A stretch of DNA of 61,348 nucleotides, filler included. It is 8 parts of 8 records of this genome, joined end to end, with 100 filler letters (N's around TTAATTAATTAA, not from the genome) between each part and the next. Parts side by side here need not be neighbours in the genome. Positions count along the whole stretch, not along the records: positions 13,377 to 21,728 come from SRR2962707_3953; 7 more parts are not named here. One strand, 5' to 3'. Within the stretch, counting starts at the first letter, position 1, and the number at the start of each line of letters is the position of its first letter. This document shows positions 4,597 to 37,879 of this stretch, one piece after another. Made by a program: the position numbers and the translations under genes. Under the pieces are notes generated by a model that searched no databases, was not told the DNA's origin, and saw only the letters and a program-made list of their open reading frames with translations.

Positions 4597-5550
4597 TTAA
4601 AGCGCGGTGCCTATGGCCATGAATTTCTCGCGGCGGTGCTCGCGCACTTCGAGCCGGCTCTTGCCCGAAAAGTCGGCCAGGAACTTGGCAAGCGCTTCGC
4701 GGGTCGAGGCCATGACCGCCTCGGGATGACGATGGGCGCCGCCGGTGGGCTCGGGAATGATGCCGTCGATTACGCCAAAGCCGAGCAGGTCGGCCGAGGT
4801 GATCTTCATATTGGTGGCCGCATCCTGGGCCCGGGCCGCGTCACGCCACAGAATGGTGGCGCCGCCTTCGGGCGAGATGACCGAATAGATGGCGTGTTCG
4901 AGCATCAGCACGCGGCTGGCCGTGGCAATGGCAATCGCGCCGCCAGAGCCGCCTTCGCCGATGACGATGGCGATATTGGGCACGCCCAGTTCGAGCGATT
5001 TTTCGGTGGAGCGGGCAATGGCTTCGGCCTGACCGCGCTCTTCAGCGCCGATGCCGGGATAGGCGCCAGCGGTGTCGACGAACGAGATCACCGGAATATT
5101 GAACCGGTCGGCCATTTCCATGATGCGGACGGCCTTGCGATAGCCTTCAGGCCGGGCCATGCCGAAATTGTGCTTGAGGCGGCTCTCGGTGGAGTTGCCT
5201 TTTTCCTGACCCAGAACGGCGACAGGCTGACCATTGAAGCGGCCAAAGCCGGCCTGAATGGCGGAGTCTTCGGCAAACTTGCGATCGCCAGCCATGGGCT
5301 GCCATTCGGTGATCAGCGTCTTGATATAATCGGAGAAGTGCGGCCGCTGCGGATGACGCGCGACCTGGGTCTTCTGCCAGGGCGTGAGTTTTTTGTAGAT
5401 TTCCACCAGCGCCTCGTCGGCGCGGCTCGACAGGCGGTTGACCTCCTCGTCGATGCTGACGGCCTGATCGGTCGCTGCAAGAGACTTGAGCTCGGCGATC
5501 TTGCCTTCAAGATCGGCTACCGGCTTTTCGAAATCGAGATAAGACTGCAT
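4597..5550 (-). CDS. accA: Acetyl-CoA carboxylase carboxyltransferase alpha subunit
   Basis: YLDFEKP start; ARHPQRP, DTAGAYPGIGAEERGQ, GEGGSGGA. Confidence 0.97.
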   Translation of the reverse strand: MQSYLDFEKPVADLEGKIAELKSLAATDQAVSIDEEVNRLSSRADEALVEIYKKLTPWQKTQVARHPQRPHFSDYIKTLITEWQPMAGDRKFAEDSAIQAGFGRFNGQPVAVLGQEKGNSTESRLKHNFGMARPEGYRKAVRIMEMADRFNIPVISFVDTAGAYPGIGAEERGQAEAIARSTEKSLELGVPNIAIVIGEGGSGGAIAIATASRVLMLEHAIYSVISPEGGATILWRDAARAQDAATNMKITSADLLGFGVIDGIIPEPTGGAHRHPEAVMASTREALAKFLADFSGKSRLEVREHRREKFMAIGTAL

Positions 5551-5724
5551 TCCACCTGCCCGTTAGGGGTCACATTTCTGGACCCATGCATCAGGGCCGC
5601 TGCTGTCGCGCCCTAAAGTGGCCGGAAAGTGACGATGGCGCAATGGCAAGTCAAGCGGAGTCACAGCGATAGGCGCTTTGTGGGGCTCGATGCTAACAGT
5701 CTGTTACCCGATTACCCCCAGATG

Positions 5725-5887
5725 TCATGACTGGTTGAGGGGGTGGTGGGTCTCCACCAGGGTGCGCAGCTTCTCGTCCAGAACATGGGTATAAATCTGG
5801 GTGGTCGAGATATCGGCATGGCCGAGCAGCATCTGTACCACGCGCAGATCGGCGCCGCCGGCCAGCAAATGGCTGGCAAAGGCATGG
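5725..5887 (-). CDS. xerD: Tyrosine recombinase XerD, C-terminal fragment
   Basis: Manual translation [35 protein letters not shown]; xerD-accA adjacency is usual in alphaproteobacteria. Confidence 0.9.
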
Positions 5888-5987
5888 NNNNNNNNNNNNN
5901 NNNNNNNNNNNNNNNNNNNNNNNNNNNNNNNTTAATTAATTAANNNNNNNNNNNNNNNNNNNNNNNNNNNNNNNNNNNNNNNNNNNN
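5888..5987. other. Artificial contig spacer (44 N + TTAATTAATTAA + 44 N); identical spacers at 13277-13376, 21729-21828, 28062-28161, 36788-36887, 48321-48420, 55981-56080
   Basis: Same 100-nt structure with stops in all six frames; genes are truncated at several junctions and composition changes across them. Confidence 0.98.
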
Positions 5988-6179
5988 AATATCCTGAAGC
6001 GTGTTGTTGAAGGCGTGACCGACGTGCAGCGATCCGTTGACGTTGGGGGGCGGGATCATCACGCAATAGGTGTCATCGCGGCTGGCATTTGCACCGGCTT
6101 TGAAGGCGCCTGCGGCCTCCCATGCTTTGTACAAACGGTCTTCAGCTTGGGCGGCGTCAAAATTCTTGTCGAGTGCCAT
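5988..6179 (-). CDS. valS: Valine--tRNA ligase, N-terminal fragment
   Basis: [22 protein letters not shown] (HIGH-type motif). Confidence 0.92.
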
Positions 6180-6363
6180 GATCAGCGTCCTTCTTTAAAC
6201 TTGATGATGATCTAGCGGAGCAAGGCGCAAAGGGGAAGGCTGGCGGGTGGAAAACTTGGGGGCGCGCAGGACGCGGGGTTTTACCCTTGGGCGTCTGGAC
6301 ATCGTGTTTTTCGCGGCTACTGTCTGCGCCAACAGTTGAAGATTTTCCAAAGGATGCGTGTAG

Positions 6364-8661
6364 ATGGATAAGTTCGGGAAAAGCCAGTCGGTCAAACGGG
6401 TTGAAGACGTGCGGTTTTTGACGGGCGAAGGGCGTTATGTTGATGATATCGCACCTGAAAATTCGCTGCATGCCTATTTCTTTCGCTCGCCTGTCGGGCA
6501 TGGGGTGATCACGTCACTTGATGTGTCTGATGCGCGCGAGGCCGAAGGGGTGCATGCAGTGCTGACCGTCGAAGATCTGGAAGCCGCGGGAATGGATATT
6601 TCCATGGCCGGTGCGATTTTGAAAAACCGCGATGGAACGGATGGTGCAAAGCCGTTGCGACCGTTGTTGGCCAAAGGGCGCGTGCGCTATGTTGGCGAAC
6701 CTGTGGCGGTTGTAATCGCCGAAACGCTGGATCAGGCCCGTGATGCGGCTGAACTGATCATGCTGGACGTCGAAGACCTGCCCACCCACATGACGCTGGA
6801 ACGTGGCGGAGAGGCGCTGCACCCCGAGGCCCCAGACAATCTGGCGTTTGACTGGGGGATGGGCGACGAAGCAGCCACGCAAAAGGCGTTTGATGCGGCC
6901 GCCAAGACCATCAGCCTTGATGTGGGCGACAACCGGATCATCGTCAATTCCATGGAGCCGCGCGGCTGTTATGCCGAGTGGGCGAACGACAAGCTGCATG
7001 TGGCCAACAATGCTCAAGGCGTCTGGGTGCATAAGGGCCACCTGAAACGTGCATTTGGTCTGGATGACGACCACGTGCAGGTCACCAACCCGGATACCGG
7101 CGGCGGCTTCGGCATGAAGGCGGCGGCCTACCCCGAGTATTTCTCGGTGGCGCAGGCATCGCGGGCCTTGGGGCGTCCGGTGCGCTGGATGTCCGACCGG
7201 ACCGAAGCCATGCTTAGCGATAATGGCGGGCGCGATCTGACGTCGCTGGCTGAATTTGCCTTTGACGAGAATAACAAGATCACCGCCTACCGGGTTAGCA
7301 CCAAATGCAACCTTGGCGCCTATAACAGCCAGTTCGGCCAGCCCATTCAGGCGACCCTGTTCAGCAAGGTTTTGATGGGTGTTTATGACGTGCAGACCAC
7401 ATGGTTGCAGGTCGAGGGGTACTATACCAACACGGTGCAGGTTGACGCCTATCGCGGTGCCGGCCGGCCCGAAGCGATCTATGTTCTGGAACGTCTGATG
7501 GACCGTGCCGCGCGCGAGCTGGGCGTAGACCCGTGGGAATTGCGCCGCATCAACTTTATCAAGCCCGAACAGTTCCCCTACACCTCTGCCACGGGCGAGC
7601 TGTATGACGTCGGTGAATTCGACCGCTTGCTGACCCGCGCTGCGATTGAAGCAGACCACGACGGCTTTGCCGCGCGCAAGGCTGCGGATGCGGCCAAGGG
7701 GCTGCTGCGGGGGCAGGGGCTTTGTTACTATATCGAGAGTATCCTGGGCGATCCGTCCGAGGGGGCCAAGGTCGAGTTCAACGAAGACGGCACCGTGTTT
7801 ATCTATGTCGGCACGCAGTCGAACGGGCAGGGCCACGAGACTGTTTATGCGCAGTTTCTGGCGGACATGACGGGCATTCCGGCTGATCTGATCTATGTCA
7901 TCCAAGGCGATAGCGACCTGATCAAGCAAGGCGGCGGGACAGGCGGGTCACGGTCTGTGACAACGCAAAGCACGGCGACATTGGCCACGGTGGCAAAGAT
8001 GACCGAAGCCTTCACCGCGTTTCTGGCCGATGAAATGGGGGTGCCTGCCTCCGAGATCAGCTTTGACGATGAACGGTTCCGCGCCGAGGGGTCGAACATG
8101 ACCCCCACGATGCTGGAGGTCGCCGAAATGGCCCGTGAAAAAGGCCGCAGCGATCTGTTGGTCCATCACGAGCGCGCAACCTTGCCGGGGCGCAGCTATC
8201 CCAATGGCGCGCATGTGTCAGAGGTGGTGATTGACCCCGAAACCGGCGTTGTCGTGGTCGAACGCTATACCGTGGTGGATGATTTCGGTAACTTGATCAA
8301 CCCGATGCTGGCAGCAGGCCAAGTACATGGCGGCGTTGTGCAAGGCATCGGGCAGGCCATTCAAGAGCATGTTGTCTATGACGAGGATGGCCAGTTGTTA
8401 ACGGCGTCCTTTATGGATTACGCGGTCCCGCGTGCGGCGGATGTGCCTTACATTGCGTTCAACTCTGAACCTGTGCCGTCAACCGCGAACCTGATGGGGA
8501 TGAAGGGCTGTGGCGAGGCAGGGACAGTTGGAGCCTTGGCCGCGATTTCCAACGCGGTGCAGGACGCGTTGTGGGATCAGGGGGTGCGTCAGGCGGATAT
8601 GCCGTTCACGCCCCATAAGGTTTGGGCCTTATTGAATGATCAGGCCATCGCTGCCGAATAG
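6364..8661 (+). CDS. Xanthine dehydrogenase-family molybdopterin-binding large subunit (CoxL form II-like)
   Basis: RVEDVRFLTGEGRYVDD, GGGFGMK, AYRGAGRPEA, GQGHET, GQVHGG, KGCGEAG. Confidence 0.92.
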   Translation: MDKFGKSQSVKRVEDVRFLTGEGRYVDDIAPENSLHAYFFRSPVGHGVITSLDVSDAREAEGVHAVLTVEDLEAAGMDISMAGAILKNRDGTDGAKPLRPLLAKGRVRYVGEPVAVVIAETLDQARDAAELIMLDVEDLPTHMTLERGGEALHPEAPDNLAFDWGMGDEAATQKAFDAAAKTISLDVGDNRIIVNSMEPRGCYAEWANDKLHVANNAQGVWVHKGHLKRAFGLDDDHVQVTNPDTGGGFGMKAAAYPEYFSVAQASRALGRPVRWMSDRTEAMLSDNGGRDLTSLAEFAFDENNKITAYRVSTKCNLGAYNSQFGQPIQATLFSKVLMGVYDVQTTWLQVEGYYTNTVQVDAYRGAGRPEAIYVLERLMDRAARELGVDPWELRRINFIKPEQFPYTSATGELYDVGEFDRLLTRAAIEADHDGFAARKAADAAKGLLRGQGLCYYIESILGDPSEGAKVEFNEDGTVFIYVGTQSNGQGHETVYAQFLADMTGIPADLIYVIQGDSDLIKQGGGTGGSRSVTTQSTATLATVAKMTEAFTAFLADEMGVPASEISFDDERFRAEGSNMTPTMLEVAEMAREKGRSDLLVHHERATLPGRSYPNGAHVSEVVIDPETGVVVVERYTVVDDFGNLINPMLAAGQVHGGVVQGIGQAIQEHVVYDEDGQLLTASFMDYAVPRAADVPYIAFNSEPVPSTANLMGMKGCGEAGTVGALAAISNAVQDALWDQGVRQADMPFTPHKVWALLNDQAIAAE

Positions 8662-13227: not shown

Positions 13228-13384
13228 GCGCGTTGCCGGGGGCGGGATGCCTTCGGCGAGGATTTAAGTCCATTTGNNNNNNNNNNNNNNNNNNNNNNNN
13301 NNNNNNNNNNNNNNNNNNNNTTAATTAATTAANNNNNNNNNNNNNNNNNNNNNNNNNNNNNNNNNNNNNNNNNNNNGGCCCCAA

Positions 13385-16300
13385 GTGGGTGCCAACTGCA
13401 CGCTTCCTCTAGAACTACAGATCACGGACGTAACTGTACGGCCTAGGCCGCAGGCGTGGCGCAATGGCAAGCCTCGAAAAGGTTTGGAGGGCGAACGAGT
13501 GTCCGTCTACGTGTCTGGAACCACCGCGGAGGGTTTTGGCGTGGTGCTGGAGGTCGCCGACTTCAAGCCGTATGTCTTCATCCGCGTGCCGGAGGAGTGG
13601 CAGAGTGACGACGCCGCAAATTTCGTGGCAACCCTCAACAAAGCCCACACGCGTGGCCGTGGCGAGCCCATGACGGGGGAGCTGCTGCGCAGGTTCCATG
13701 CGGTTGGGTACCGACCGGGTCCTGATGGGCAGCCGTTTCGCTTCAATTTCGTGAAAGTGGGGTTTCCCACGCTGCGCCTCCGAGATGCTGTCTGCAAGCA
13801 CTTCAAGGCTGCCCCTGGGGGCACCCGGCGACCGGGGAACGATGCCATGTGGACTGGACTGCTCCGGGCAATGGGTATGGCTCACTCGCCTGCAGATCTT
13901 GAAGCACTTGGGGACGAAGTGTTCACTCTCCACCACGACCAGATTCCCCATGCGCAAGCATTCATGAACACCGTTGGCGTATCAGCGTCGGCGTGGCTTC
14001 GGGTCGATGCTGGTGTGTTGGTTGCTGCAACGAAAAGCCCTCACAAGTTCAGCAACATGCAGGTCGAGGTGCAGCGGGTAAAGGTTGCTGACCTGCATCC
14101 TGTTGAGCGGAGCGCCATGGCACCAATGGTAATTCTCAGCTTCGACATCGAAAGCTACTCCGAGTCCCGAGAGTTTCCCAAGTGGTGGAACCCCGATGAC
14201 AAGATTATTAACGTTGGCATGAATTTTGCCACTTGTGCTGGTGCGACCAAGCTCCCTGTGAGCGATGGCGCTGGTGGTGACAAGGTTGAAGCGAAAGTCT
14301 TGGGTGATGGCATCTTGCGGACGGTGCTGTGCCTTGGTGCAACAGGCAACAGCGACGACGTGCACATTTCAACGTTCGACACGGAGGCTGAGCTACTCTC
14401 CGCTTTTCAAGAACGAATAGCAGACCCTGGTCTTGACCCAGATATTTTGCTCGGCTACAACATTTTTGACTTCGACTTCATGTACCTGGCACAGCGTGCT
14501 GCGCTCATCACTCTCATGCGGCAGTTGCAGCAGAAGCCTTGGCCGGAAGTGGACGCGTTGTGGCGCTCAACGCGCAAGAAGGTAGCCGCGTTCAACGGAT
14601 ACGCCGACAGCTATCGGGCTTGTTCTGATTCTGACATCAAGGGCAAGAAAGCAATTCTGCAGCGGATGCACGCGATATTTGAGACCAGGGGGTCACGACT
14701 TCCTTCAATGCCGTCAGAGCCCATGCTGCTTGGCAAATACGAGACTGCCGATGAGCTTCGAGCAGCATGGACCTACTTTGGAGGCCAACCCAGCACGACA
14801 TTTAACAGCTGCAGCCGGCTGGCAGCGGATGTGTGCACACTTCAAACTCACACGTTGGAAAGCTCAGCCATGGGGTCCAATGAACTTCGCCGATTTGACA
14901 TGGCAGGCCGTGTGTGCCTTGATTTGTGGCTGCACCTGAAGAACGGAAACTCCAAACTGAGCAGCTACTCATTGTCGAGCGTGTCCCAGCACTTCTTGGG
15001 ACTTGACAAAGCAGACATGCCCTACAATACGCTCTTTGACTACTACGCAAGCGGAGATCCACAAAAGCGCGCTGAGATAGCAGCGTACTGCAGCCGTGAT
15101 TGTGATCTTCCCATTTTGTTGGTGAACAAGCTCGGGACCATATCCGACCTTGTGGAAATGTCTCGTGTGTGTCGCACTCCACTTCCAGCACTTACAACTC
15201 GAGGGCAGCAGGTAAAAGTTTACTCACAACTTGCGTTCGAGGTTGAGTGTGCTGGAGCTGTCCTGAACACGGTCAGTATAGCCCCGCCATCGACGTACGT
15301 GGGTGCAACCGTCATTGAGCCAAAACCTGGGTACCATGACTTGCCGGTTGCGACGCTGGACTTTGCCTCGCTGTATCCTTCCATCATGCAAGCAAACAAC
15401 ATCGGGCCAGGGTCTTATGTCCTTCCGGGGGACGTTGCACATGTGCGACAAATGGCCGCAGACGGCAAAGTTGAAGTCAACGTGATTTCTACTGCTGCGG
15501 ACAACCCGCAGTCAGCAATTGCAAACCTACACGCCAAGCAGCGTGAGGCCCAGTCACCGTCGACCCCATCCTCCAACTGCTCCGAGGAAGACACTGGAGT
15601 GGGCGCTCTTGAACGTATTGGCAACGATGGGGGTGGAGCAGCTGGTGCTGCAGAAAAGCAGGATGACACCACGCACCTTTTCGTCGCTAGCACAACGTAC
15701 AAAGGTCTGGTTCCAAAGTTGCTGTCCAAACTGCTTCATGCCCGTTCAGAAGTAAAAAAACAAATGAAGAAAGAGAAAGACAAGTTCAAATACGGCATGC
15801 TCAACAGTAAGCAGCTGGCAATCAAGATATCTTGCAACTCTGTCTACGGTTTCTTTGGTGTGAAGGCGGGATATCTTCCGTGCTGGCCTGTTGCTGCTTG
15901 CACGACTGCTACTGGACGACGGTATATCGACCAAACGAAAGAAGCAGTGGAGTCCAAGTACACGAAGGCTAATGGCTATCCGGGCGACGCAGAGGTTGTG
16001 TACGGCGATACAGACTCTGTAATGGTCAAATTTCAGGGGGTTCCACGCAGCATGGACGGAATGAAGCAGGCATGGAAACTTGCCGAGGAAGCAGCTGACT
16101 ACGTTTCAGATGTGACCTTTGCAGCTGAACGTGAAATTGTGCTTGAAGCTGAGAAGGTTTACTGGCCATACATGATTTGGGACACGAAGAAGCGGTACAT
16201 CGGTCGTTGTTTCATGCACCCAGATTATCCACCAAAGATTGACGCAAAAGGTGTCGAATTAGTTCGACGTGATAATGCGAAACTAGTACGTGATATTTAT

Positions 16301-18951
16301 GGCCGCCTTGTCGAGGCTATCATGCCATTGGAGGGCGCTGCGAGAAGTGTCGAAGAGACTCGCGAAGTCGTTGAGCGCCATTTGGAGATGGAGCTCAAAC
16401 GCATTGTCAATGATGAACTTCCTCTCAGTGATTATATTATCACAAAAAGTCTGAAACAAGGCTACAAAAGTGACCATCTTCCGCACGTGCAATTAGTGAA
16501 GAAAATTAACAGGCGCATTAAAACTGGTCAGCTTGTCCGAGAGCCACCGAAGTCTGGCCAGCGCATTCCGTATGTGATTGTGCAAGGCAAAGGGCAGGTC
16601 TACCAGCGAGCGGAAGACCCCGAGTGGATGACTTCGAAGGCTGAATCTGTGGATCACGACGTGCGAAAAAAGGCTCCTAAGCTCGATCGGGTGTATTATC
16701 TTGACCAGCAGCTGAAAAATGCCCTAACAAAGCTGACAATGTATTTTCACACCACAGCCAAAGTGTTTCGAGATGCTGAAGGAGCCGTGTCCCGGCAGCA
16801 AGGTGGCAACCATAGCATCACCAACTTTTTTTGTGCGGGAGCAGGCTCGATTGGCAAGAGGAAACACCCACTAAAGCCCAGTGTGGAGTCAAGCGCAGAC
16901 GTCACCAGCTCCAAGTCGTTGGACGACAGCGAAGCAAGAAAAATGGTGGCCAAGAGGCCCCGCACGGCCGATGAAACCAAATCCGTGGCTGACAAGATTT
17001 CTGCACGGTTGGCCAAGGCGTCTGCCAGCTTAGCAAACCACCGATCTGCAAAGCCGCAATCGAAAAAATCCATTGCAAGACCGAAAACTGCAGCAGCGTC
17101 CAAACGCAAGATCTCGTCGCGGAAAAGCACATCAACAGAGGCGAAGACTACGGTCAAGCGTGTGCGGAAGAAGAAGCACAGTATTCTGGACTCCTCCTCA
17201 GATGAAGATGAGGAGGAGGACGATGAACACAGGCCCATCGACTACGGGCTTGAAGAAGATGATGGGGACGATTTTGACGTCAGCGAAGCGGACACTGCAG
17301 CGCCGATTGGCAGCGATATCGGGATTTCAACTTTTGCCAGTGGCTCGTTAGCACAAGAGCCAAATAGCGCAGACAATAGCCACGACCAAGATACTCGCAC
17401 CTCAAGAGACGAGGGTGCGGCGGACGATGACGATAGCGAGGAAGAATCCAGCGACAGCGACGAGGAGCTTGAAGAAACAGACCCACTTGATCTCGAATCC
17501 CTCGAAAACGTGGCGCAAGAGTGGTTCTTCCGCGCTAGATCCGAAATTTTGTACCCCGCTTCCACGATGCTGGAACAAATCAAGTTTTTTCTTGCTGCAC
17601 CCATTACGCAGGTGAGTTGTCGATGTCGTGTTGCGAGATCGTCCGAAATGCCAACCAGTGCCCGATCCTAACATCTCGACTGTGGTGCGGCCTGCTGCAA
17701 CTAGGCATCCCAAGCTGTGGCCATGATGAGACAGTCGCGTAAAGCAGCTCCGGAGGAAATCGAATTCTGGGACGCTCTTGTCGCAGCCCGGTCAAGCGGT
17801 GACGTGCGTATCCCGACAGCAGCCGAAGTTGCTACGTCCGAAAAGCCCGCATCTGCAATTGCGCAATCGCGGGAGGCGGTCAACACCGGAAGTCCAGACG
17901 AGACTCCTCGCATAGACCCAGGTCAGCTTACAGTGCAAACATTTTCGTCCCTGCAGTGGCATGCATGACGTTTCTTTCCCGTTGGCCGTTCATCGTTGCA
18001 TGATCTGCAGTGCCCGTTGCTTCAACGTATTGTTGACCCGTGCTGATTGTAGGGACCCGCATTGCAGTATTCTGGCCGCTGGACGATGAATGGTACTCTG
18101 GCACCGTCGGTGAATTTGATAACGCGCGCCAGCTGCATTCTATCACCTACGATGACGACGAGCACGCCTGGCTTGATCTTAGTGCCGAAGACTTCAAGGT
18201 GCTTGATACACCAACCCAAAGCAACACAGAAACCAGCAGCGCGGGTTGTTTGGGCAAGAATGAAGGGACGGATGACGCAGCCACAATTGGGTCAATTTCA
18301 TCACTAAACGACAGAAATTGTATCAACAGTGATAAAACGAAGCTCGAGGTGATTGTGGATCCTGTCGAAGCCCTCCGCGCCAAAGAAGAAGCTCTGCTAC
18401 AACAAGATGAGGATGAAAACTCGTTGCTCAATGTGCACATCGCCGTGCATGCTGTGCATGCTGCAGAGCAGAGGCAGATGGAAGACGATGAAAAGCAAGA
18501 CGAAGAATTGAAAGAAGGGCGAAGTCAAGTGCAAGATTCCACGGTTGGTGCTGCCATTGCGACAGCTGAAGCCTGCATGGCTGAATCATCCTCGTCAGGA
18601 GACGAAAACATTGGCAACATCGAATGCGAGCCTTCAACGGCCGACAAGTCTTCTGAGTCCACTCCAACTACTGTCACAGCGGGGGTAGGGGAAATGGACA
18701 AAGCAAATGTTGGGCGTTCCAAATCAGTACTGAAGGTGCTCGCCAAACTCAAAAATTCTGTGGACGTGATACAGCTGAACAACAAGTACAAACAGGACAT
18801 ATCAGCCGCTGCGGCATTAGCTGCAACAATTGCGGCTTATGCTGAGGAAAATGACGACTCAAGTGAATCTAAAATGCTCTCGCAAGAGCAGTCTGAGTTT
18901 GATGACCAATTTGATATTGGGGACATGGACTTTGGCGATGATGTTCTTTAA
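13385..18951 (+). CDS. Family B DNA polymerase of giant-virus type with a long C-terminal extension and Tudor domain; predicted exons 13385-17611, 17705-17921, 18053-18951 (5' end may be incomplete)
   Basis: ExoI SFDIES, ExoII GYNIFDFD, ExoIII YCSRD, motif A DFASLYPS, motif B KISCNSVYG, motif C YGDTDS (16001-16018). Introns 17612-17704 (CAG|GTGAGT...CTAAC...TAG, phase 0) and 17922-18052 (phase 1) join the frames without stops. The PolB call is firm; the splice model is inferred. Confidence 0.85.
18053..18210 (+). other. Tudor-like domain (PDS5/MSH6 type) in the predicted last exon
   Basis: GTRIAVFWPLDDEWYSGTVGEFDNARQLHSITYDDDEHAWLDL matches the VxWPxDxxWYxGxV...HxxxYDDG pattern. Confidence 0.8.
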
Positions 18952-19094
18952 ATATTAACTATGGTCGTGAGTGGCGAACACGATTGTCAACCGTTGGAAA
19001 CGTCGAACAAATTCTGTCTCCGCTCCTTTGTTGTGAGCTTACTGCTTCTCCGTTTGTAGCACACAAGGTAATCACCACGGGGTACTCACAGCAA

Positions 19095-21628
19095 CTACTT
19101 GTGGCGCAACACGGCTGGGATTTCTGGGTCATCGGGCACCTCAACATAATCATCAAAATGTTCAAAGTCAATCGTGCAACGACCTGGATGAAGCAAAAAG
19201 ACAGACAGAGTTGACCGTTGCAGCGCAGGCTGCCTATCATGCGAGAACTACTTCCACATTGTCAAAAACAAGCAAGACCAACACCAATCTCACCGTCATT
19301 TTCAGCACGAGTGCACGGAGCGAAGTCGTGTGAGAACACAAAATCTTGCAGCGAATAAACTTTTCGGCACTGAAGCGTGCATGATGCGTTCGGATCCACC
19401 CCCTCAAGCAAAACCAAGATGGTAAAGTTGCTGAAAGCAGCTAGTTGTTCGCGCAGCTCGTCTGCGTCGCGAGGAGCTGCCGGCACGGTTTGAGTCAGGA
19501 GATAAAAACAAAAAGGCGGTTGGTGAGAGCATGGCATCCAAACAGCCAATATCTACTCCAACAAAAATGCACGCCACGGACCGTGGCGCAAGACGTGCGG
19601 AAGTCTTTGACGGATTTTGGCCCGTGTGCTGTATCGTGGCGATTTCTGAAGGGCGAGTAAAACACAAATTGGTTCTTGTTCAGTGACACAAAGCTTGCGG
19701 CCACGATGCAACACAACCAAGTTCACGCAGCATCGCACCATTGCGCGGCCCAGCTTTGACATCCCGGGCGACGACTTGGAGCTGGAACCGTCCAGCTACC
19801 ACGAACGTCGTTGTGCGATCAGGAAAACAACAGAACACACGGCAAACGCAATTTATTCTGATGGCACCATTGACAGTGACATTTGTTACTCTCATTTACA
19901 AGCCTTCCCGCCCACAAAATACACAGTTTGGGACGTACTGTTGATTGGCGCGAAATCGCTGGGGGAATCTCCAGGGAAATATCGGAATACGAATTCTGCG
20001 AATCAGCTTTTGAGTTGACGAGAGGAAGCGGAGCAATGTCGACAGACTGAGGATCTTTGGGGATCAACGGTTGATACTCTGGACTTTGGGACGGCGATTT
20101 CATCTCATCAATGGTGTCTGGGGAGGATGCACGAGAGTCGTCATTCGCTCCAACTGGCCAGTGATCCCACTTGTGAAGGCTTGCCAACATGGCTTTCGAG
20201 GCCCCTTCCTCTTCGTAGCTGATGAAAACAGCACCGCCATGTTCGATTTTCAACCAAATCAACAACGATTGCATTCAATCCTGTGCAACAGGCTAAGATT
20301 GACCAGAAAAACCAAAACTTACCCAGAATTGGCATCTTGAGCGGCATTGATTCGAATGTGCCGATTCAACAGAGCCTGGGGAGAAAAATAGAGAAGGGAG
20401 AGTGTGAGTTTGTGTTCAATGCCAAAGCAGAAATGGAGGGAGCAGGGAGCAGGGCGTGTATGCATAGTGAAAGGACCAACCTTGGACCGATAAGCCTCCC
20501 CACAAAATTCACAACTGTACAGTTGGCCATCGGATTCGACTGAACTCATGTTACCTCGCTTGTCTGGCCACTTGTAGCTGTTCATTGGGTCATAGCTGCC
20601 CAAAAACACAAAATATACCACCACATAAGCACCCAGTACAGAAAAATGTAGCCTGCATCACTCCATCATTCACCTGCTTCAACGTACTCTTTAGTCGGAA
20701 TGTACAAGAAGTTGCGATGAGACAGCGGGCTCCAGAAATCGATGCGATGGACGACTTGCGACGGCAACATGAGGAGCATCGGGGCGCCTAAATCGTCGTC
20801 GGGATGATTGATGCTCATTGGGTATTGTTGAAACATGAAAGGGATTTCTCGACCAGCATTAAGCATTTCCGCTTCGGTTTCATCCCGGATGCAGTAGCAC
20901 CGCACGTGAGCTTCCAAAATTTGTGAGTGCCGCATTTCGCAGACACGGAACATGAAGTACCACTGTCCGCGGATCTGCCGGATCATCACCTTGTTGCTAA
21001 ATCGCACGGAGTATTTGCGGGTGCCGCCGCGAGCACATTTTGTGTACATGAGTCCGAGCAGAAACGCATTCATCATGAAGCCAATCAAAACCTCGATAGT
21101 GATTACTGTGGTCACGCCGTAACAGCCATTGAAGAACAAGGTGGCACTACCATATCCAACCGTTGTTATTGTAATCGACGAAAAGAGGAACGCATCCGAC
21201 ATGTTCGTGATACCGAGGTGGCAGTCATCATTGGGCACAGCCAGAGCAACAAAAATGCCGGCGAAAAGAATGATCAAGATGAAGTACAGCACACTGTACA
21301 TAAAGAGCACTGATGGCGCTGGCATCTCCACAAGTGTGTGGTAGCAGTCTCGAACGTGAAAGCCCCATCTTCCGGAGTTCCCACACCATCTCTTGCGAAT
21401 GGAGCGCGGGCCTGCTGACAAGATCACGTTGCGTTGCTGCGGCAAGAATTGCTGCAACTCGTGTGCTGCTATCTCAGATTCGACGCCAGATTCTTCGTAC
21501 TCCGAAGGAAACCGCCCCGGTGTTGCGAAGACAGACGAGGTGTGTGCCATGGGCGCGTGCTTGACTTTGAGCTCCGAGCCCACACTTGCATCGTCGTTGG
21601 ACGAAGCCACCAGTGATTGATCGTCCAT
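19095..21628 (-). CDS. Inward-rectifier K+ channel (Kir-like), multi-exon
   Basis: Two TM helices around ITITTVGYG; cytoplasmic motifs VRFSNK, FMFRVCEMR, ILEAHVR, VVHRIDFWSPL and ILVLLEGVD...LQCRKVY. GT-AG introns at e.g. 20687-20596, 20480-20376, 20322-20219; last exon ends IDFEHF...LRHK* at 19095. Middle exons are less certain. Confidence 0.88.
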
Positions 21629-21704
21629 GGTCAGCTGGACTGTGCTTTCTTTTTTAGGCCATTCAGACCAACTACATGCGGCTTCCTGCTTTTTTTTTTG
21701 CCTT

Positions 21705-21728
21705 TCTCTCTCTCTCTCTCTCTCTCTC
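21705..21728. repeat. (CT)n microsatellite at contig end
   Basis: Direct reading. Confidence 0.9.
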
Positions 21729-21828
21729 NNNNNNNNNNNNNNNNNNNNNNNNNNNNNNNNNNNNNNNNNNNNTTAATTAATTAANNNNNNNNNNNNNNNN
21801 NNNNNNNNNNNNNNNNNNNNNNNNNNNN

Positions 21829-21986
21829 ACACACACACACACACACACACACAAACGTGAACGCTCTCATACGCACTCGCCCACTAGATCTACTCTCACT
21901 CACACACACACACACACACTACTCTCTCACCCTCACGCTCACACACACAACAACAACAACGCAACAACAACCAACACAACACAAAC
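21829..21986. repeat. (CA)n / (CAA)n low-complexity microsatellite tract
   Basis: Direct reading. Confidence 0.9.
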
Positions 21987-22145
21987 AGTAGATCCTGCCT
22001 ACAATAGCCTGTACATTTACCAGGCGGCAGGTATCCATAGCCTGTACATACACCCATTTGTGACCCCATTCAAGGCCACGAAAATATACTATCTACTATC
22101 TATCTACTATCAAGGCCACGCACACTCTGCACGCCAAATTTTAAA

Positions 22146-25100
22146 TTAGCTATTCGCTCCTTTTGGCTTGTTTCGTTGCCGTGGTTGTCCAGGGGTACCA
22201 TCAGAGCCTTTCTTCTTCCCCCCACAGAACGACTTGAGCACTCTCTTCAGACGAGATGGGTCAGAGCGTGACTTTCCGCAAGCCACGTCCTCCAAAAAGG
22301 CAAGCTGCCCTGCCGTTTAAAAGCAACACAGGTACATTCACTCATTACCCAAGGAAGAAGCGACATACTCAGGAGCATGCTTGTTGGCGGTGCGCCGGCT
22401 ATTTACCTGCAGCACTGGTCGAAGGAAGTGCACCTGCAGCAAACGCGGCGTTTCCAAGCGATTTGAATGCTGCAACACCTACGGCGCAGACGATTCCATG
22501 GATCACATCTGAAATCTCGGCAATGACCTGCAAAAAAACGCACCGAGGCATGAAATTGGTCACAAATATTTTCAGCGCAACATTCTTTCCACACTGGGAA
22601 AACGCGCAAACGGGCGGGGTGGATGGGTGGCAATCTGCAACAGAGTATTGAAAATGATGCGCACCCAAGACGGCATTGTACCCCCAGCTCCGTCCAGTAA
22701 CTCTTTGAGCAGGGCTACGCCAACACCGCGAACAATACCCGCGAGAGCGCTGCCGAACTCACGCGGTGGAGCGACGCCGCCATTTTTTTTTCCACCAGCG
22801 CCGGCATCATCCGCGCCAGCGGCGGCAGCCGTGTGGAATACTTGAGCCAAAGTTCGCAAAATTGCCTGCAGGAAGCCAAAAGCAACACAGGCCACATTGG
22901 GGCCCACAACAATTGATCGTGACACAAAGACAACAACACTTGTGGGTTTTCTTTTCGCGCCAGTTCTCCACAGCACAGTAATAACGAACTTTTGATGCAT
23001 CTCTGTCTTGCAAATGGAGGTGGCGTGCCAAGAATATGACCAATACTTCCAACAAAGACGCTACAATACCTCCACTGTCGACACTGGAAGCCACTGCCCG
23101 ACCTGCAGATGCTGCCTGTACCGTTGTTCGTGGAACAGAGCGGCAAAACATAGCTGGGATGTGGCTGAGTGCTTCGTCTGCAAATGCACAGAAAGAAGAT
23201 ACAACTGGAGGGTCAATATCGCCCATTCGCGACCCTGGATTGGGAACTTCAGCCGTTGGTGCTGCTTTGTGGCTGAAAATAATTGCACTAAGCAGGATGT
23301 CTTCCAGCGCTCGTACAAGTGCCCCGCCAGCTACAACAAGGGGAAATATACACACCACGCCAAGTGCGGTCATGATGATTTTTTCTGGAATGATAAAAAT
23401 CCTTGCAACAATTCTCCTTGCGGTGTTGCGGAAATGCGAGCAGTCACAAGGCTAGTCAGAGAATGAACTCGACGCACCACCATCAAAACGCGCGGGCACA
23501 ATCAGACCTTCCATGAGTTGCAATGCCTCGGCCATCGGCAATGTTCGGAATTGAGCAGCGGCACACGTTGCCATTTTGCTGTACCACTCTGGTGATAGCA
23601 CGCGCACAGGCATGGCCGCTCCCTGCAAAAAAAAGCACAGCCGATGAATGAGGATGACAGTGTCCCCGAACAGAAATCGATGCTTGCTCACAACAAACGC
23701 AAACAACAGACCTTCGCATGCGAATCAAAGAAGTGCTTGGCCACAATCGAAATTGCCTTTGTCAGAAAACCATGACGTCGGCCACACAGCAGCGGAAGCA
23801 CCAGCTCCGTTGTAGCCTGAGGGCCCGCCCGTGCACAGGCAAAAGCAGCTTGCAAAATCTGGATCGTTGCATCGTCAAGCACAATAGTGAGGAGCAAAGT
23901 AAGCACGTTTTGCGATAGGGCACGAGTCTAACGTCGAAGAAAACCAAATTTACGTACATCGACATGTTTCGCTAAGAACTGCGGGACCAAGGAAGGATGT
24001 TGACTCCAGCATCCGCGGTCGAAGAGTGCCTGGGTAGTGAAGATCAAAGCGACACCGTAAACAAAATCAAATTTTTACACCGATCACGTCAACAAAACCA
24101 ACCCATTCATTCACCGCACCGACATCATACACAACGCTTCAGCGGCGTCGTAGCTAATTTTGAGGATACTGGAGCCGTTTCCAGCTGGCACCAACGCGGA
24201 ACGCAGGACAGTCTGCAGCATGGAGAGCCATGAAAATAATTAGACTCGTTTGATGCCAAATACATCAACGGTGCTCCAACAGGGACAAGTGTTCAATGAG
24301 CGAACCAAATGAGGTGTGAGAAGGTGGCTGAAAATTTTCTGGGTTGATGCAATGTCAGATGAGGCATCTGCGAGGAGGCATAGTCCCGACACAAATGGTC
24401 GCACGACGTGCACCGGCACTGTGCGACGCAGATCGGTATGGCGCTGGGCAAAGCAAACAAAGACAGTCCATCACAACAGGCGATTTTCGCATCTGTCTGA
24501 CAGGCGGCATGAGAACTATCGCATCTTGATGTTGTTCATCTGTGCAAACGAACTCGAAGAATGTTTTCAACAAAACCAGGGTGGGCTGAGGCGATGTAAG
24601 AGGCTGAGTTTTCGCACAGCTTGCGAAAGGAATTTGCGATGGCACTAACTGTTTGGACCTACATTTGGGCATCCAAAGCAAACAGATTACTCGAACGACC
24701 AACCTCCAACAAAGAACCTGGTGACTTGGCTCGATCGGTTGTCCACAAGCAAATCACGGCAACTGCAAGCCCACACCTCTGCAGACTGCATCAGCGCACT
24801 ATGCTTGCCAACAAAGTATTGCTCGTTCATCTCGCGTAGCGCAGCGTCTTGACACCGGAAGTCCACTAGAGCCTGAACATTCGGAGAAAAGTCTCAAAAC
24901 AATCATTACCATGTACCCTATTGCACTTTACTTGAGTTTGTAAGATAGCAATACGACGAGCTGCTGACGGGTAGCGAAACATAGCGCAGCTGCGCGCGCA
25001 CCATAAGCATGAGCTTGAAAATGTGCACCAAGCCTTTAGGGTTCTTAATGAACCAATCACTCATCGTGCCTAAAATATCGTTGCGCAGTGCATAACGCTA

Positions 25101-28019
25101 CCGAAACGGCACCCTCGACACGACAGACACGATTGAATAAGCTGCAACATGCTGTGCCCTACGCACGACTAAGATCAATTGTGGCTGCTCGCACATGGGT
25201 ATTGCCGTCGTGAAGCTGCGAATACCTTGTTTTGCCCATCCAACATTGTCAAATACCGTTATGATGCAAAGAAGCAAACAATGGCTAAATTGCGCACCGC
25301 ACACTCACTTGAGCAATCCGGGGACCACTCTCCCGTCCAGCTTTGTCTCGAGTTTTTCTGAAGCGCACTGTCGAAGCTGGAACAAAAGAACTTCCACAAC
25401 CTGTATTGTTGTGGAGAAAAGCAACTTGAATGTGCGTCGAGGAGCTCAATCTCTATTGAACGTGATCCTCATTCAGAACATCACGACACTGGCACAGGAA
25501 AAAAAATCTTCGTTGATGCATTTACCTGCCAGATGGTGCCGCGGCCTGTAGCATCAGGTAGCTTTTTTACGTCTGGTGGAGACAAAGGACTCGCTGGTTC
25601 AGAACGACCGGACGTCAGCACCGGCTCCAGAAATTTGTGCAAATGTTCACCTGACGTTAGCAACAAGGCACGAATGATTTTGGGTGAGTCACAACCATAA
25701 CACTCGCTGATGGGGACAGCATAATCAGCAACACAGCCTCAGTGTCGTCATCCAAATTGTACATATTTAATCACTGCGAAACCAATTGAGTGGACTTGAA
25801 AACCCTCGAAGCGTGCACACATACCCGAACAAACGTAGTTGAGACTACCAACGTCGAGTGCCAAGGTTGTCATCAGCGCTCCAATCGCCGACGATGCAAG
25901 TTGGCGCAGACGCCGAAATTCATCGACATCGTCCAGAACCATCGCATCCATAAATCCAATATGGAAAGCTATAGGGCCAGCAATGGGAAACATGGTCGCA
26001 CAAAGCACAGCACTGCAGGCTTGCGATAACATTTTGCGAAGGGCAGCTCCGGCAGGGTGCCCCGGCACTGTGTGGCCACTAGGACTTCCTTGCACGGACT
26101 GCGTGCTTGCAGCGTAGCCGCCTCCTTGCCCTGCTTGCTGGCGGCGATCCGGGTTTTTATCTTTGGCCCGCTTTGGCCGACTTTTCTTCCGCACGTTGCT
26201 TCCTGGTGGAAGCGCAACCGCACTCGCAAACGCGGACCAGAAGTCAAACACTGCGTGCTTCAACTCTAGTTCGAGACCAGGAGCAACAGTGGTGCGCACA
26301 ACAGCGCCTAGAATAATTTGTAGCCGAGGCAGGTAGGCTGCCCCATCTGCCCCACCGAGGTGCCTTAACATATTACAGGTAATGCCACTTGAAGCTCCAC
26401 CCGTGAAGCCGCCAAGACCTTGTGCCAGCGCTGACAAAGTAATTTCAAGGTGATCACATGCGCTGGGATCTGAAGCTTCCCCACTAATAAACGAAACAGC
26501 GGAAAAGAGAGTTCACCAACTGCAGGGATGGCCCAAAATGTGACACAAGCAACACCCACAATCGGTAGAAAGACAATAGCACGCGGCACGAACCGCGAAG
26601 AGCGAAAGCTTTGGCTAACCAATTGTGTAAAGTGCGTCAATGCTGGGACAAGATGCGTGAGTAGCGTCAAAAGAGCATCGGTCGCCTTCGGGATTGTGCG
26701 ATTGTCCGTGCAAAGATCGAACACTGACGCAAGAAGCTCCAAAGCATGCTTTTTCAAAGTGAACAGGTCAGCGCTGGATCCCTGCAAAGTAACGACAATG
26801 AAAGATCAGTTTAGACACGCACATCACTCTGGTGCGAAGAGAACAAACTGCATTGTCGCCAGATGAGGCTAAAATCACACCTTGGCTGCCAGAATTTGCA
26901 GTGCCCGCCGGACCGGCAGCGAACTCAGGAGCTGCACAACACCTTCCTCTCTTGGATTCCAGCAATCCAAGTTTATCCAGGCAGTACAGCAACCTAGAAT
27001 CTGCGCAACCTATGATCACAACACGATATGGTATGAATATCACACACAGCCGCATTCGATTTGACTTCCTGGCTGGTCGGCCTGTGGTTTTAGCAGTCCT
27101 GCCCGCAAAAAAAACATTCCTGGACGCACCCTACTTGGAGCTTGGGTCGTCAGGTCTTGGCCACATAATGCCTGCAGCAACGCCATCACTGTTGATGCAG
27201 ACCCTCGCAATGCAGTTTGGACGAGAAGTCGGTGTTTACGAGACTCATGGCATTGTTTCCCGCGGATTTCCTCAGCCAATGATGTCAACACCAGCAGCGA
27301 AAACGCAACGTGTTCACGTCGCTGGCGACAAAACTTGCAAATTTCCTGGCAAACACCCTGTCCACCCGCCACGTTCCAGTCGCTGGACTGGATGGAAAAT
27401 GACGCAAAAGCTCGTGCAATGCGCATGCCGATCAACCGATTCGTCGAGTGAGCCACTCCAACCTTGATTCCACAAATTGCATTGGGGCAACAATTATAAC
27501 AGACGCGGCCACAACGGCAGTTTCACAGACCTTGTACACAAAGCTCAAGGTTCAGCACATCGAAAAGTGTGAGCAAAGCAAAAGCACGCCGATCAGCATG
27601 CTCGTGGCGAGGTTCTGTTGGGGTGGCCAAACCTCAAGTATCGCCTTCTTGAGCCTCAGGCATCCTGCCGCGTCGAACGTGTTCTCCGCGCCCACCCCAA
27701 GCTGCGTCGTCTTCTCATGAAGTGTCTGCGCGTGGAAAAACAGCTCGGTCTGGCTCTTGCACCTCGCTGGGTTGCGGAGGAACGCAAAAGACACGGACCA
27801 CGCGTTGCGAGTTTGCTGGTACTCCCGCAGCCATTTTTGAGCAGAGGCCGTGTACACCTGCGTGCACTTCCCAGAGGACAGGTTGGCAATCGTCGCCTGG
27901 AGCTGCGCAGCGAGGGCTTCAGCGGACGGAGCAGGGCTGTTACCGGTATTCGAACTTGAGACGCCCCTCTGCGCACTCCCTCCTCCTCCGGTGCTCCCAC
28001 CACCAGGAGAGCCAAACAT
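22146..28019 (-). CDS. Importin-beta/karyopherin-family HEAT-repeat protein (transportin-3/importin-13-like), multi-exon
   Basis: N-terminal AQKWLREYQQTRNAWSV...ELFFHAQTLHEK (IBN_N-like), then LLVLTSLAEEI. Many GT-AG-bounded coding blocks; last exon ...KRVLKSFCGGKKK...ANS* ends at 22146. Internal exon borders not fully resolved. Confidence 0.7.
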
Positions 28020-28031
28020 CGTGCTCTTCGT

Positions 28032-28061
28032 CACCACCACCACCACCACCACCACCCCACC
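28032..28061. repeat. (CAC)n microsatellite at contig end
   Basis: Direct reading. Confidence 0.9.
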
Positions 28062-28161
28062 NNNNNNNNNNNNNNNNNNNNNNNNNNNNNNNNNNNNNNN
28101 NNNNNTTAATTAATTAANNNNNNNNNNNNNNNNNNNNNNNNNNNNNNNNNNNNNNNNNNNN

Positions 28162-28206
28162 TTTTAGCCGCAACAGGCGCGATGCAAATAGCGTGAACAG
28201 GCCCTA
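28162..28206. mobile_element. Probable terminus of a MITE-like repeat (minus strand TAGGGCCTGTTCACGCTATTTGCATCGCGCCTGTTGCGG), truncated by the contig end
   Basis: Begins at the TA of the SRPBCC stop codon; the assembly breaks inside it; resembles TA-flanked MITE ends recalled from marine gammaproteobacteria (not verified). Confidence 0.4.
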
Positions 28207-28632
28207 AAACATCGCCGCGAATTCGGCGGCGAAACGGCGATCAAAGCGATGAATCAGTTTACCGAAGGGGAGCGTGAGCAATGTCATGGCGCCCTCGGAC
28301 CATTCTTCCTGATGCAACCGGCAGCCACCCTCGTCGTCGTCAATGAAGGAAAAGCGGTGCTGAATCCGTGCCAGCGGCAACGACAGTCCCCAACTGATGC
28401 GCTCGTTCTCCACCACTTCCAGTACCTTTACCGCCACCGGCGCGGGTGGCAGGCCGGGCAGGTCGATAACGAACAGCAGGGTGGCGCCGGGTCGCCATCC
28501 GCCGAACAATCTGGCATAGCGAACCACCGAACACCAGTCGGCCCAGTCGTCCACCCGGGTGAACAGGGAGAAAGCCTGACGGCGGGAGGCGGCGGTGTCG
28601 GTGACGTCGTCGATGAAATAGCGTTTCAGCAT
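28204..28632 (-). CDS. SRPBCC/polyketide cyclase-like protein
   Basis: 142 aa; DWADW...RISW...HRFSF...CRLHQEEWSEG pattern. Confidence 0.7.
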   Translation of the reverse strand: MLKRYFIDDVTDTAASRRQAFSLFTRVDDWADWCSVVRYARLFGGWRPGATLLFVIDLPGLPPAPVAVKVLEVVENERISWGLSLPLARIQHRFSFIDDDEGGCRLHQEEWSEGAMTLLTLPFGKLIHRFDRRFAAEFAAMF

Positions 28633-28874
28633 GGCAGGCTCTTCAGGGTTTGCGCCAAGATTACCTGTCGTGATGGATCGCGGCCAGTTCAGAGCCAAGG
28701 CGAATCGGGCCATTATCCACTGGAAACTTGACCGAGGGCCGCGTCCTGCCTAGCGTGAACAAAAAATCATAGGGAATGATTTCTGACGTCGCTTGCGACG
28801 GCCCGCAGGGGGACCGCCATGGATGGCAGTCATGAAAAATAACAAAGGCGAAAGCCACTACGTAAGGAAACCAC

Positions 28875-29942: not shown

Positions 29943-29970
29943 CGCTGGTCCCCGGCGCGCCGGGGATTGA

Positions 29971-30864: not shown

Positions 30865-30902
30865 CAGCGCGATCCATGATGCCTTGTTGATGGTGTTGAG
30901 CT

Positions 30903-32069: not shown

Positions 32070-32175
32070 GAATCATCGCTTCGGTGATCGGAATCTCACG
32101 TCCCTGTTCGTCCACCAGGGCGGCGTCGTTGAAATCTCCGGATCCCGGCGAGCGGGAGAGGGAAGTGCGGCTCAT
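32002..32175 (-). CDS. PA1571-family small protein
   Basis: AALVDEQGREIPITEAMILKAC motif; GGAGA RBS; located between pdxB and the ATP-NAD kinase. Confidence 0.75.
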   Translation of the reverse strand: MSRTSLSRSPGSGDFNDAALVDEQGREIPITEAMILKACRELEQAWRYPRQADRKAG

Positions 32176-32277
32176 GGTAGTCTCTCCGTTAATCCGACCC
32201 TCCATGGAGGGCTGACCTTTGGGTTCGGGGTGATCTCCCCCGGCACGGCCATTCTTGTTGTTGGATATGATGATTTT

Positions 32278-33426: not shown

Positions 33427-33454
33427 ATGGTCGGGCGCCAGAACTAAAAGGCTG

Positions 33455-33527
33455 CTGTAGGAGCTTGCCTTGCAAGCGAATTCGGCATCCGGCGCAAAAG
33501 ATTCGCTTGCAGGGCAAGCTCCTACAG
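33455..33527. repeat. REP doublet (REPIN): inverted GTAG-type REPs
   Basis: CTGTAGGAGCTTGCCTTGCAAGCGAAT (33455-33481) and its reverse complement with 1 mismatch (33501-33527). Confidence 0.85.
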
Positions 33528-33543
33528 TGGCTTCGAACTCCCT

Positions 33544-33569
33544 CTGTAGGAAGCTGCTTTAGTAGCGAT
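33544..33569 (+). repeat. Solo REP-like unit of a second class
   Basis: CTGTAGGAAGCTGCTTTAGTAGCGAT: GTAG head plus imperfect palindrome. Confidence 0.55.
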
Positions 33570-33620
33570 GGCGTGCCAGCGTGTTGCGTGTAAGCGCTTT
33601 TCAAAACAAAGAGGATTGAG

Positions 33621-37873: not shown

Positions 37874-37879
37874 GCGGGC

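Follow-up and report, generated by a model that had tools for sequence, protein, structure and literature searches.

Can the polymerase gene of a large DNA virus become a lasting part of a protist nuclear genome, and if so, does it then serve the host? This question is raised by PolB, a family B DNA polymerase gene in the stretch of DNA analysed here (61,348 bases, hereafter the window), which the original prediction, made from the letters alone, had described as a giant-virus-type polymerase embedded in a single long, intron-containing protist contig. The single contig was not borne out. The window contains 616 N, in seven identical 100-nt linkers (44 N + TTAATTAATTAA + 44 N), which divide it into eight pieces of 5.3-11.4 kb each; the window is therefore eight separate contigs, and PolB lies on one of 8,352 bp (13377-21728). 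Contigs of a mixed culture or bin were joined to give this record. As it is a linker-joined patchwork from several organisms, adjacency across linkers carries no meaning, and whatever seems to run across a linker is artefactual. On its own contig, PolB is followed by a two-exon Tudor-like gene on the same strand (17723-18951) and then by a convergent Kir-type potassium channel gene. We consider it moderately probable that PolB is a family B DNA polymerase of viral ancestry that now belongs to the nuclear DNA of Incisomonas marina, where spliced host genes follow directly downstream, and that has been kept intact.

Two sequencing runs, both of one organism, were compared with the window: X1, a DNA run of 2025 that is possibly the source of the PolB contig, and X2, a run of 2019 from another study, which was labelled RNA by guess.

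The PolB gene and its product

The PolB frame is open on the plus strand from the first base of the contig to 17671 and comprises 1428 aa when counted from a GTG at 13385. Pfam matched DNA_pol_B (E 6.3e-100, 335.5 bits, residues 603-1092) and DNA_pol_B_exo1 (E 1.8e-22, 80.4 bits, residues 193-377), each with a cut-off of 23, and the scan gave nothing besides these two, neither zf-C4pol nor POL3_N. The translation contains FDIES, YNIFDFD, YCSRDCD, DFASLYPS, KISCNSVYG and YGDTDS, which supply the full catalytic set of Exo I (DxE), Exo II (NxxxFD), Exo III (YxxxD), Pol A (DxxSLYPS), Pol B (KxxxNSxYG) and Pol C (YGDTDS), and all six occupy invariant or near-invariant columns in a 31-sequence alignment. 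Judged by its sequence, the gene product is a family B DNA polymerase. AlphaFold modelled residues 1-1152 with a pLDDT of 84.9 and a pTM of 0.81, with disordered inserts at residues 287-307 and 707-758. The lack of the CysA/CysB metal-binding motifs, which had been noted from the start, was confirmed by the missing zf-C4pol match and by the count of CxxC pairs in the last 200 residues, which is 0 in PolB and 2-3 in Pol delta rows.

The prediction of a complete PolB with intact exonuclease and polymerase motifs held for the motifs but not for completeness. The database protein P0001 agrees with the window PolB in every one of 1,427 positions compared but begins five residues earlier at the N-terminus; as these residues would fall under the linker, the window copy is cut at its 5' end; contigs of both X1 and X2 continue upstream of the PolB start.

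Following the thumb domain, PolB carries a PCNA-interacting-peptide (PIP)-like motif, NHSITNFF, and then about 300 residues with basic clusters and acidic/serine runs, in which Pfam found no domain, ending in a block conserved with the orthologue P0002. The basic/acidic tail is common to these two orthologues only; 9 further sequences in the alignment, including 8 from the same clade as PolB (see below), lack it. Orthologue similarity ends exactly at a splice donor, CAG/GTGAGT, at 17611/17612, which suggests that PolB carries a 3' intron; beyond this point two near-identical orthologues differ from each other. The candidate intron of 93 nt (GT..AG) fits the proven introns of the contig in size and splice sites, and if it stays unspliced the in-frame stop at 17669-17671 would terminate PolB. 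X2 contigs are missing across 17283-17840, hence none spans the candidate intron. PolB had been described as a single intronless exon, which agrees with the stretches under transcript-like contigs but may not hold for the far 3' end, with its textbook donor. A PolB-Tudor fusion through splicing of 17611 to 17705 would be in frame, with well-formed splice sites; we rated it unlikely, because a stand-alone Tudor-like homologue of 427 aa exists (P0297, match beginning at residue 103) and because no fused 785-2499 aa form occurs among the PolB protein matches.

A second PolB-like contig was observed in X1. Placed at 15372-15393 and 15985-16017, it matches the two most conserved motifs only, encodes PIATLDFAS and VFVKFGCET, and has a word depth of 36.8, compared with 45.2 for the PolB contig. 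As a hint, it could be the host's own Pol delta. Among 10 proteins for which organism names were looked up, there were 6 Pol delta (PolB) matches, none of them from Incisomonas.

Ancestry of PolB

Among solved structures, PolB matched Pol delta best by sequence (E 1e-107), followed by herpesvirus polymerase (1e-37) and Pol zeta (1e-34). Foldseek searches with the model gave yeast Pol delta (3iay, E 8.6e-65, TM 0.85 on target) and, in BFVD, the PolB of EhV-86 as the best match (E 5.7e-69), followed by Pandoravirus quercus and other giant viruses. The top 12 organism-named BFVD matches were all giant viruses and herpesviruses appeared from rank 25 on, with a fold-alignment identity to any named virus of 23-25%. 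The closest protein to PolB is P0002 (1412 aa, 79% identical). The next closest to PolB are proteins of about 1,100 aa with 38-41% identity (660-685 bits, compared with about 400 bits for Pol delta), none of which has a zinc-finger domain. Inteins are present in 8 of the 25 top PolB protein matches.

For phylogenetic analysis, 257 full-length PolB sequences (139 from fetched loci and 118 from a protein search) were thinned at 65% identity to 80, and 4 were restored. All 84 rows were aligned with FFT-NS-2 and 58 with L-INS-i. Three trees were calculated: FastTree (84 rows, 880 columns), IQ-TREE under LG+G4 (58 hand-chosen rows, 892 columns; the 26 omitted were mostly redundant Pol delta or giant-virus rows, plus two long branches) and IQ-TREE under LG+C20+F+G4 with posterior mean site frequencies (PMSF; 34 of the 58 rows, 853 columns). 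The trees contain no named virus, and the support values given here are from the approximate likelihood ratio test SH-aLRT. Pol delta formed one clan throughout (support 100 in each tree), made up of 36 rows in FastTree, 32 bearing the zinc finger and 4 without it by the CxxC rule, of all 20 Pol delta rows under LG+G4 and of all 10 under PMSF, the query being outside it in all three trees. In all three trees the nearest neighbours of the Pol delta clan were IMG/VR giant-virus contigs. The query pair fell inside a clade of zinc-finger-less metagenome PolBs of 17-20, 19 and 12 rows, respectively (support 98-100), within which the trees give it no firm place. Forcing the pair together with Pol delta cost 128.6 log-likelihood units (approximately unbiased (AU) test, p 8.7e-5). 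These results support the view that PolB is of viral type, giant-virus-like and related to Pol delta, and lies outside eukaryotic Pol delta, as had been predicted.

The viral nature of the clade rests on its inteins (by precomputed Pfam matches, 6 of its 17 rows besides the query pair have one), on frames without interruption and without a zinc-finger tail, on the fold matches and on a protein-language-model Atlas, in which the clusters indicated are mostly labelled Nucleocytoviricota. The clade may belong to Nucleocytoviricota or to Mirusviricota. Of the motifs given in the prediction as giant-virus-like, ESSAMG.NEL..FDM.GR and CWP.AACTT..GR did separate the groups, with identities of 61% and 60% to the viral clade compared with 34% and 38% to Pol delta, whereas EKVYWPY...KKRY and RRDNA.LVRD scored about equally against Pol delta; the EKVYWPY pattern is common to all PolB groups.

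Locus searches added little. A single-protein search of IMG/VR returned no related locus. The alignment-based locus search gave, among the matches listed, nothing beyond generic giant-virus and Pol delta loci, because its search patterns were universal PolB motifs, and 0 of 19 re-checked extra loci fell in the query's clade. The clade-specific pattern ESSAMG.NEL gave 6 matches in IMG/VR, 0 of them PolB, so that no inner-clade member was found there; its 7 matches in prokaryote genomes, all in bacterial records, were taken as chance. The one related contig with a readable neighbourhood, L041 (IMGVR_UViG_3300002307_000053) of IMG/VR, has a major capsid gene of nucleocytoplasmic large DNA viruses (NCLDV) 2 kb from its PolB. 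In the L041 locus (4900-7392, 15666-17036), we also observed a collagen-repeat protein (Pfam E 4e-58), glycosyltransferases and a YqaJ-like recombinase around PolB, together with the major capsid protein. In the cluster of P0020, P0281 and P0284 (705 and 176 aa) are two fragments of a PolB from this viral-type clade on one ENA contig of 220,086 bp, and contigs of 703-711 kb carry other members of the cluster. Other eukaryotes may thus have chromosomal copies too, split or with introns.

Host and chromosomal setting

The host was assigned through the piece at 48421-55980, which carries an exon of gamma-glutamyltranspeptidase (GGT) and an exon of a condensin-II subunit (Condensin2nSMC, E 2e-39). 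The GGT exon is identical at 474 of 475 positions to a EukProt protein of Incisomonas marina, and on this sequence match the eukaryotic contigs are those of I. marina, a heterotrophic stramenopile of the Nanomonadea (MAST-3). The GC content and the GC content at third codon positions (GC3) of the PolB contig match those of the condensin and GGT genes of the same organism: GC3 is 0.576 for PolB, 0.549-0.643 for host-like genes and 0.66-0.76 for bacterial genes.

All eight splice joints in X2 (seven in Kir, one in the Tudor-like gene) are GT..AG and X1 has none of these joints, and X2 was therefore taken as transcript-derived. Its contigs on the PolB contig are at least 99% identical in 12 of 12 cases and cover PolB at 13377-13778, 14734-15564 and 15988-16524. 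A further run, X3, had no contig matching the PolB contig.

The physical linkage of PolB to its neighbours was seen in a 7,161-nt Logan DNA contig of X1 (record 5), which spans 13722-20884 and bridges PolB, Tudor and Kir, and which argues against the possibility, raised with the prediction itself, that the contig is chimeric at the PolB/Kir boundary. P0001 and P0280, the exact Tudor open reading frame (ORF), are recorded on one ENA contig of 1,710,162 bp, and P0137, the GGT protein, on one of 1,215,950 bp. Since P0001 and P0137 reach beyond what the window pieces can encode and sit on megabase-scale contigs, a separate long assembly of the same organism exists. Together, the bridging contig, the spliced neighbours and the 1.71-Mb contig join a gene of viral ancestry to host genes, as in an endogenous viral element, on the 3' side only. 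With the spliced Tudor and Kir genes and the I. marina GGT match, the predicted location of PolB in eukaryotic nuclear DNA beside spliced genes stood.

An orthologue in a diverged relative

The frames of PolB and P0002, each of about 1,400 codons, are both intact. By region, P0001 and P0002 are most alike in the polymerase core (87-92% identity), followed by the exonuclease (79%), the N-terminus (73%), the insert (61%), the tail (45%) and the sequence beyond the putative donor (31%). By our own arithmetic, the genetic code would yield about 6 new stops for every 100 changes of an amino acid; as the orthologues differ by at least 360 amino acids, about 20 stops would be expected under neutrality, and none was seen. 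Exon 1 of Kir has its best match in P0257 (70% identical), and the longest contigs of P0257 and P0002 are both of 148,816 bp. Because of the core conservation, the lack of stops, the apparently shared Kir neighbour and the host-like composition, we favour the reading that the PolB insertion predates the split of the two carriers and that the frame has been kept open since. That PolB is kept under selection as a host gene, as predicted, is no more than suggested by the intact orthologue, the contrast between core and tail, the apparent Kir linkage and the partial transcript cover.

Neighbouring genes and make-up of the window

The coordinates of the features are collected in Table 1. The convergent multi-intron Kir-type gene had been predicted correctly: exon 1 contains Pfam IRK and IRK_C, seven GT..AG introns are spliced out in X2 contigs, and the spliced gene is a single open frame. 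Its transcript contig extends past the end of the PolB contig, and homologues with 32-49% identity come from separate short contigs of metagenomes or transcriptomes. A gap of 143 bp between PolB and Kir, as originally given, was not found, given that the Tudor-like gene intervenes and the Kir coding sequence (CDS) ends at 19095. Exon 2 of the Tudor-like gene has a weak PTM_DIR17_Tudor match (E 0.0029, under the Pfam cut-off); at E <= 0.001 there are 794 relatives of the domain, many in long multi-repeat proteins, and one relative of the ORF is 75% identical.

Table 1. Coordinates of features in the window (positions of the whole stretch)
Feature	Position	Strand	Details
Seven artificial linkers	5888-5987, 13277-13376, 21729-21828, 28062-28161, 36788-36887, 48321-48420, 55981-56080	.	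44 N + TTAATTAATTAA + 44 N
Linker between bacterial contig and PolB contig	13277..13376	.	artificial, 44 N + TTAATTAATTAA + 44 N
Linker 3' of PolB contig	21729..21828	.	artificial; PolB contig terminates in a GA-type microsatellite just before
PolB coding exon	13377..17611	+	5' end cut by contig start
PolB layout (window-ORF numbering)			N-terminal domain; exonuclease ~250-600; polymerase core ~600-1100; PIP-like NHSITNFF; basic then acidic/Ser-rich tail; conserved C-terminal block
Exonuclease and polymerase core (span of the original prediction)	13385..16840	+	1152 aa, AlphaFold model
Candidate PolB intron	17612..17704	+	93 nt (GTGAGT...CTAG); putative, from sequence and loss of orthologue similarity at the donor
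Tudor-like gene, exon 1	17723..17921	+	first ATG 17723
Tudor-like gene, intron	17922..18052	+	131 nt, GT..AG; spliced out in X2 contig (joint 17919->18051, cut +2)
Tudor-like gene, exon 2	18053..18951	+	exact 303-aa ORF 18040-18951 = P0280
Kir-type potassium channel gene	18934..21728	-	CDS from ATG 21628 to stop ending 19095, 593 aa
Kir introns, seven	20596-20687, 20376-20480, 20219-20322, 19796-19938, 19646-19738, 19477-19581, 19184-19293	-	GT..AG; X2 joints

Three pieces have a GC content of 52-54% (13377-21728, 21829-28061 and 48421-55980). The first two have a microsatellite at an end and, outside PolB, contain short and broken frames, as in intron-bearing DNA. In the piece at 21829-28061 we observed a CA-type microsatellite at the start, a GTT-type one at the end and several minus-strand exon-like frames, the N-terminal one of which (27552-28061) appears importin/transportin-like by eye and has no Pfam match. 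An 813-aa frame in the piece at 48421-55980 matched no Pfam family and gave weak HEAT/condensin-like Atlas leads only.

In the remaining five pieces the GC content is 59-64% and the genes are bacterial (LysR, an ADH-like oxidoreductase, inositol monophosphatase, AraC, fructosamine kinase, molybdopterin oxidoreductase and SMC). The contig preceding that of PolB, with its LysR, ADH-like and inositol monophosphatase genes, is bacterial and unrelated. Two pieces, 28162-36787 and 36888-48320, match genome G001 with 97-100% identity, each on a contig of its own (C38 and C27), whereas the pieces before 13277 are just 64-72% similar to G001, and on this difference the window holds at least two bacteria. 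A bacterivore culture would also account for the bacterial pieces. About 2.3 kb of the piece at 36888-48320 (roughly 43278-45642) are without a G001 counterpart and encode two Sel1-repeat proteins. Stretches of about 80-120 nt at ~28760-28841 and 33440-33570 match dozens of G001 sites on both strands with 75-95% identity and are dispersed palindromic repeat elements of that bacterium.

Discussion

The strongest competitor of a host-resident PolB kept for the host is the possibility that a larger giant-virus or mirusvirus genome, integrated and possibly still inducible, continues upstream with PolB as its outermost gene, and that PolB serves the virus. We hold this to be possible but doubtful. 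The PolB contig starts inside PolB, leaving all 5' sequence outside the window, and a latent virus would be expected to keep its replicative polymerase intact and transcribed. Integrated elements of giant viruses occur widely among protists (10.1101/2025.04.19.649669), and some integrated or episomal mirusviruses carry spliceosomal introns (PMC12768974). However, the relative, whose proteins differ by 21-30%, apparently has the same Kir linkage, which speaks for a single old insertion and against two recent ones. The codon composition of PolB is host-like, its long tail is confined to the two orthologues, and the intron-rich mirusvirus orders are described as lacking PolB (PMC12768974).

It is very unlikely that the 8.35-kb contig comes from a free or episomal large DNA virus with intron-rich, host-like Kir and Tudor genes. 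Potassium channels do occur in some algal giant viruses. Mirusviruses can have up to 0.65 introns per kb and many host-like genes (PMC12768974). In contrast, the Kir gene here has 7 introns in 2.5 kb, with its homologues scattered over separate short contigs, the Tudor-like domain belongs to a large family frequent in multi-repeat proteins, base composition follows the condensin and GGT genes, and in the ENA assembly, which has GGT on a contig of 1.22 Mb, PolB shares a 1.71-Mb contig with the Tudor ORF. The chance is slighter still that PolB is a divergent Pol delta paralogue, or the organism's only POLD1, that has lost its zinc-finger tail: Pol delta is the best solved-structure match by sequence and fold, but three trees and the AU test reject this origin, the bit scores of the nearest relatives far exceed those of Pol delta, and the second PolB-like contig of X1 hints at another family B polymerase. 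Least likely of all appears an assembly chimera between PolB and Kir. The window is itself a patchwork of organisms and X1 may be the very data from which the contig was assembled; against this stand the separate bridging Logan contig, the 1.71-Mb ENA contig that carries both PolB and the Tudor ORF, and the same pairing implied in the relative.

Several observations weigh against a host-resident, retained PolB. The sequence upstream of PolB lies outside the window and may hold a larger viral element; the predicted absence of other viral genes on the contig is not supported as stated, since it rests on 4 kb downstream. The presence of PolB and Kir on one contig in the relative is deduced from the shared length of 148,816 bp and not from contig sequence, and retention by selection was judged from open frames and regional identities. 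The RNA label of X2 is a guess, and its PolB-covering contigs have a word depth of 4-5, so that for PolB DNA carry-over is possible. As for ancestry, the named Pol delta references are from fungi, animals, Euglena, Percolomonas and Diphylleia and include no stramenopile, while the query's clade has neither a named virus nor a readable gene neighbourhood for any member. L041, with its capsid gene, is basal to the clade in FastTree (support 97) and unresolved or elsewhere in both IQ-TREE trees.

PolB may serve either the host or an integrated virus that is still unseen; we favour long retention in the host. With the residues of Exo I-III and Pol A/B/C all present, PolB would act as a single-subunit, proofreading polymerase of the replicative type. 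Pol delta binds its B-subunit (POLD2/Pol31) via its C-terminal domain; as the CysA/CysB domain is absent, PolB would not dock on the Pol delta B-subunit. Tethering to PCNA would probably involve the PIP-like NHSITNFF after the thumb, and nuclear entry the basic clusters of the basic, then acidic/serine-rich tail. Integration would have taken place before the divergence of the two carriers, with the frame since held open by selection. It is tempting to speculate, though this is tentative, that a MAST-3/Nanomonadea lineage domesticated the replicative polymerase of an uncultured clade of marine large DNA viruses as an extra PCNA-dependent proofreading polymerase with a nuclear-protein-like tail and perhaps an intron. 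If so, PolB would be a living example of how polymerases of the delta type pass between eukaryotes and large DNA viruses, and would provide the first host link for that viral clade.

Genes of giant viruses are common in protist genomes, where most of them are eroding. A replicative polymerase that is intact and transcribed and apparently keeps its host-gene neighbour in a diverged relative would be a candidate for true domestication of an enzyme of viral replication. PolB also links a clade known from metagenomes only to a culturable host group, the MAST-3 flagellates, so that a virus-host link becomes testable. Our literature search found no paper reporting a viral polymerase gene in MAST-3 flagellates.

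Comparison with known systems

PolB shares with Pol delta (POLD1, yeast Pol3) the fold, the domain order (N-terminal domain, 3'-5' exonuclease, palm-fingers-thumb) and the Exo I-III and Pol A/B/C motifs, and it most likely works like the Pol delta catalytic core. It differs in the absence of the CysA/CysB zinc/iron-sulphur domain and of the Pfam family POL3_N, and in having a 300-residue basic/acidic tail instead. The PolBs of Nucleocytoviricota (EhV-86, Pandoravirus quercus, Heterosigma akashiwo virus 01) are likewise delta-like and without a zinc-finger tail. The viral rows and PolB have in common an S/I-t-x-f-F motif after the thumb, and inteins occur in sister sequences of PolB. In contrast to these viral genes, PolB lies in a host chromosome, its downstream neighbours are spliced eukaryotic genes, and the setting of a viral genome was not found on that side. 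Mirusvirus PolBs, from metagenomes of marine plankton, form a monophyletic clade whose place is between orders of giant viruses or close to the delta/zeta types (PMC10132985). The herpesvirus PolB, which the literature places next to mirusviruses, matches PolB weakly (E 1e-37, compared with 1e-107 for Pol delta).

The closest parallel in genomic setting is provided by endogenous giant-virus elements (GEVEs) and endogenous viral elements (EVEs), in which a viral hallmark gene is likewise found in a eukaryotic chromosome. Endogenous giant-virus elements are described from protists, algae and fungi, namely Chlamydomonas, Euglena gracilis, brown algae and Rhizophagus (PMC9693826, PMC12455990, PMC11890097, PMC10640383). 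Unlike these, PolB is the sole viral gene visible in 8.35 kb, it is intact rather than eroded, and parts of it lie under transcript-like contigs; it also has a lineage-specific tail, perhaps a 3' intron, and apparently a host-gene neighbour shared with a diverged relative. Set beside these systems, PolB looks like a known kind of viral leftover in a protist genome, but an unusually well kept one.

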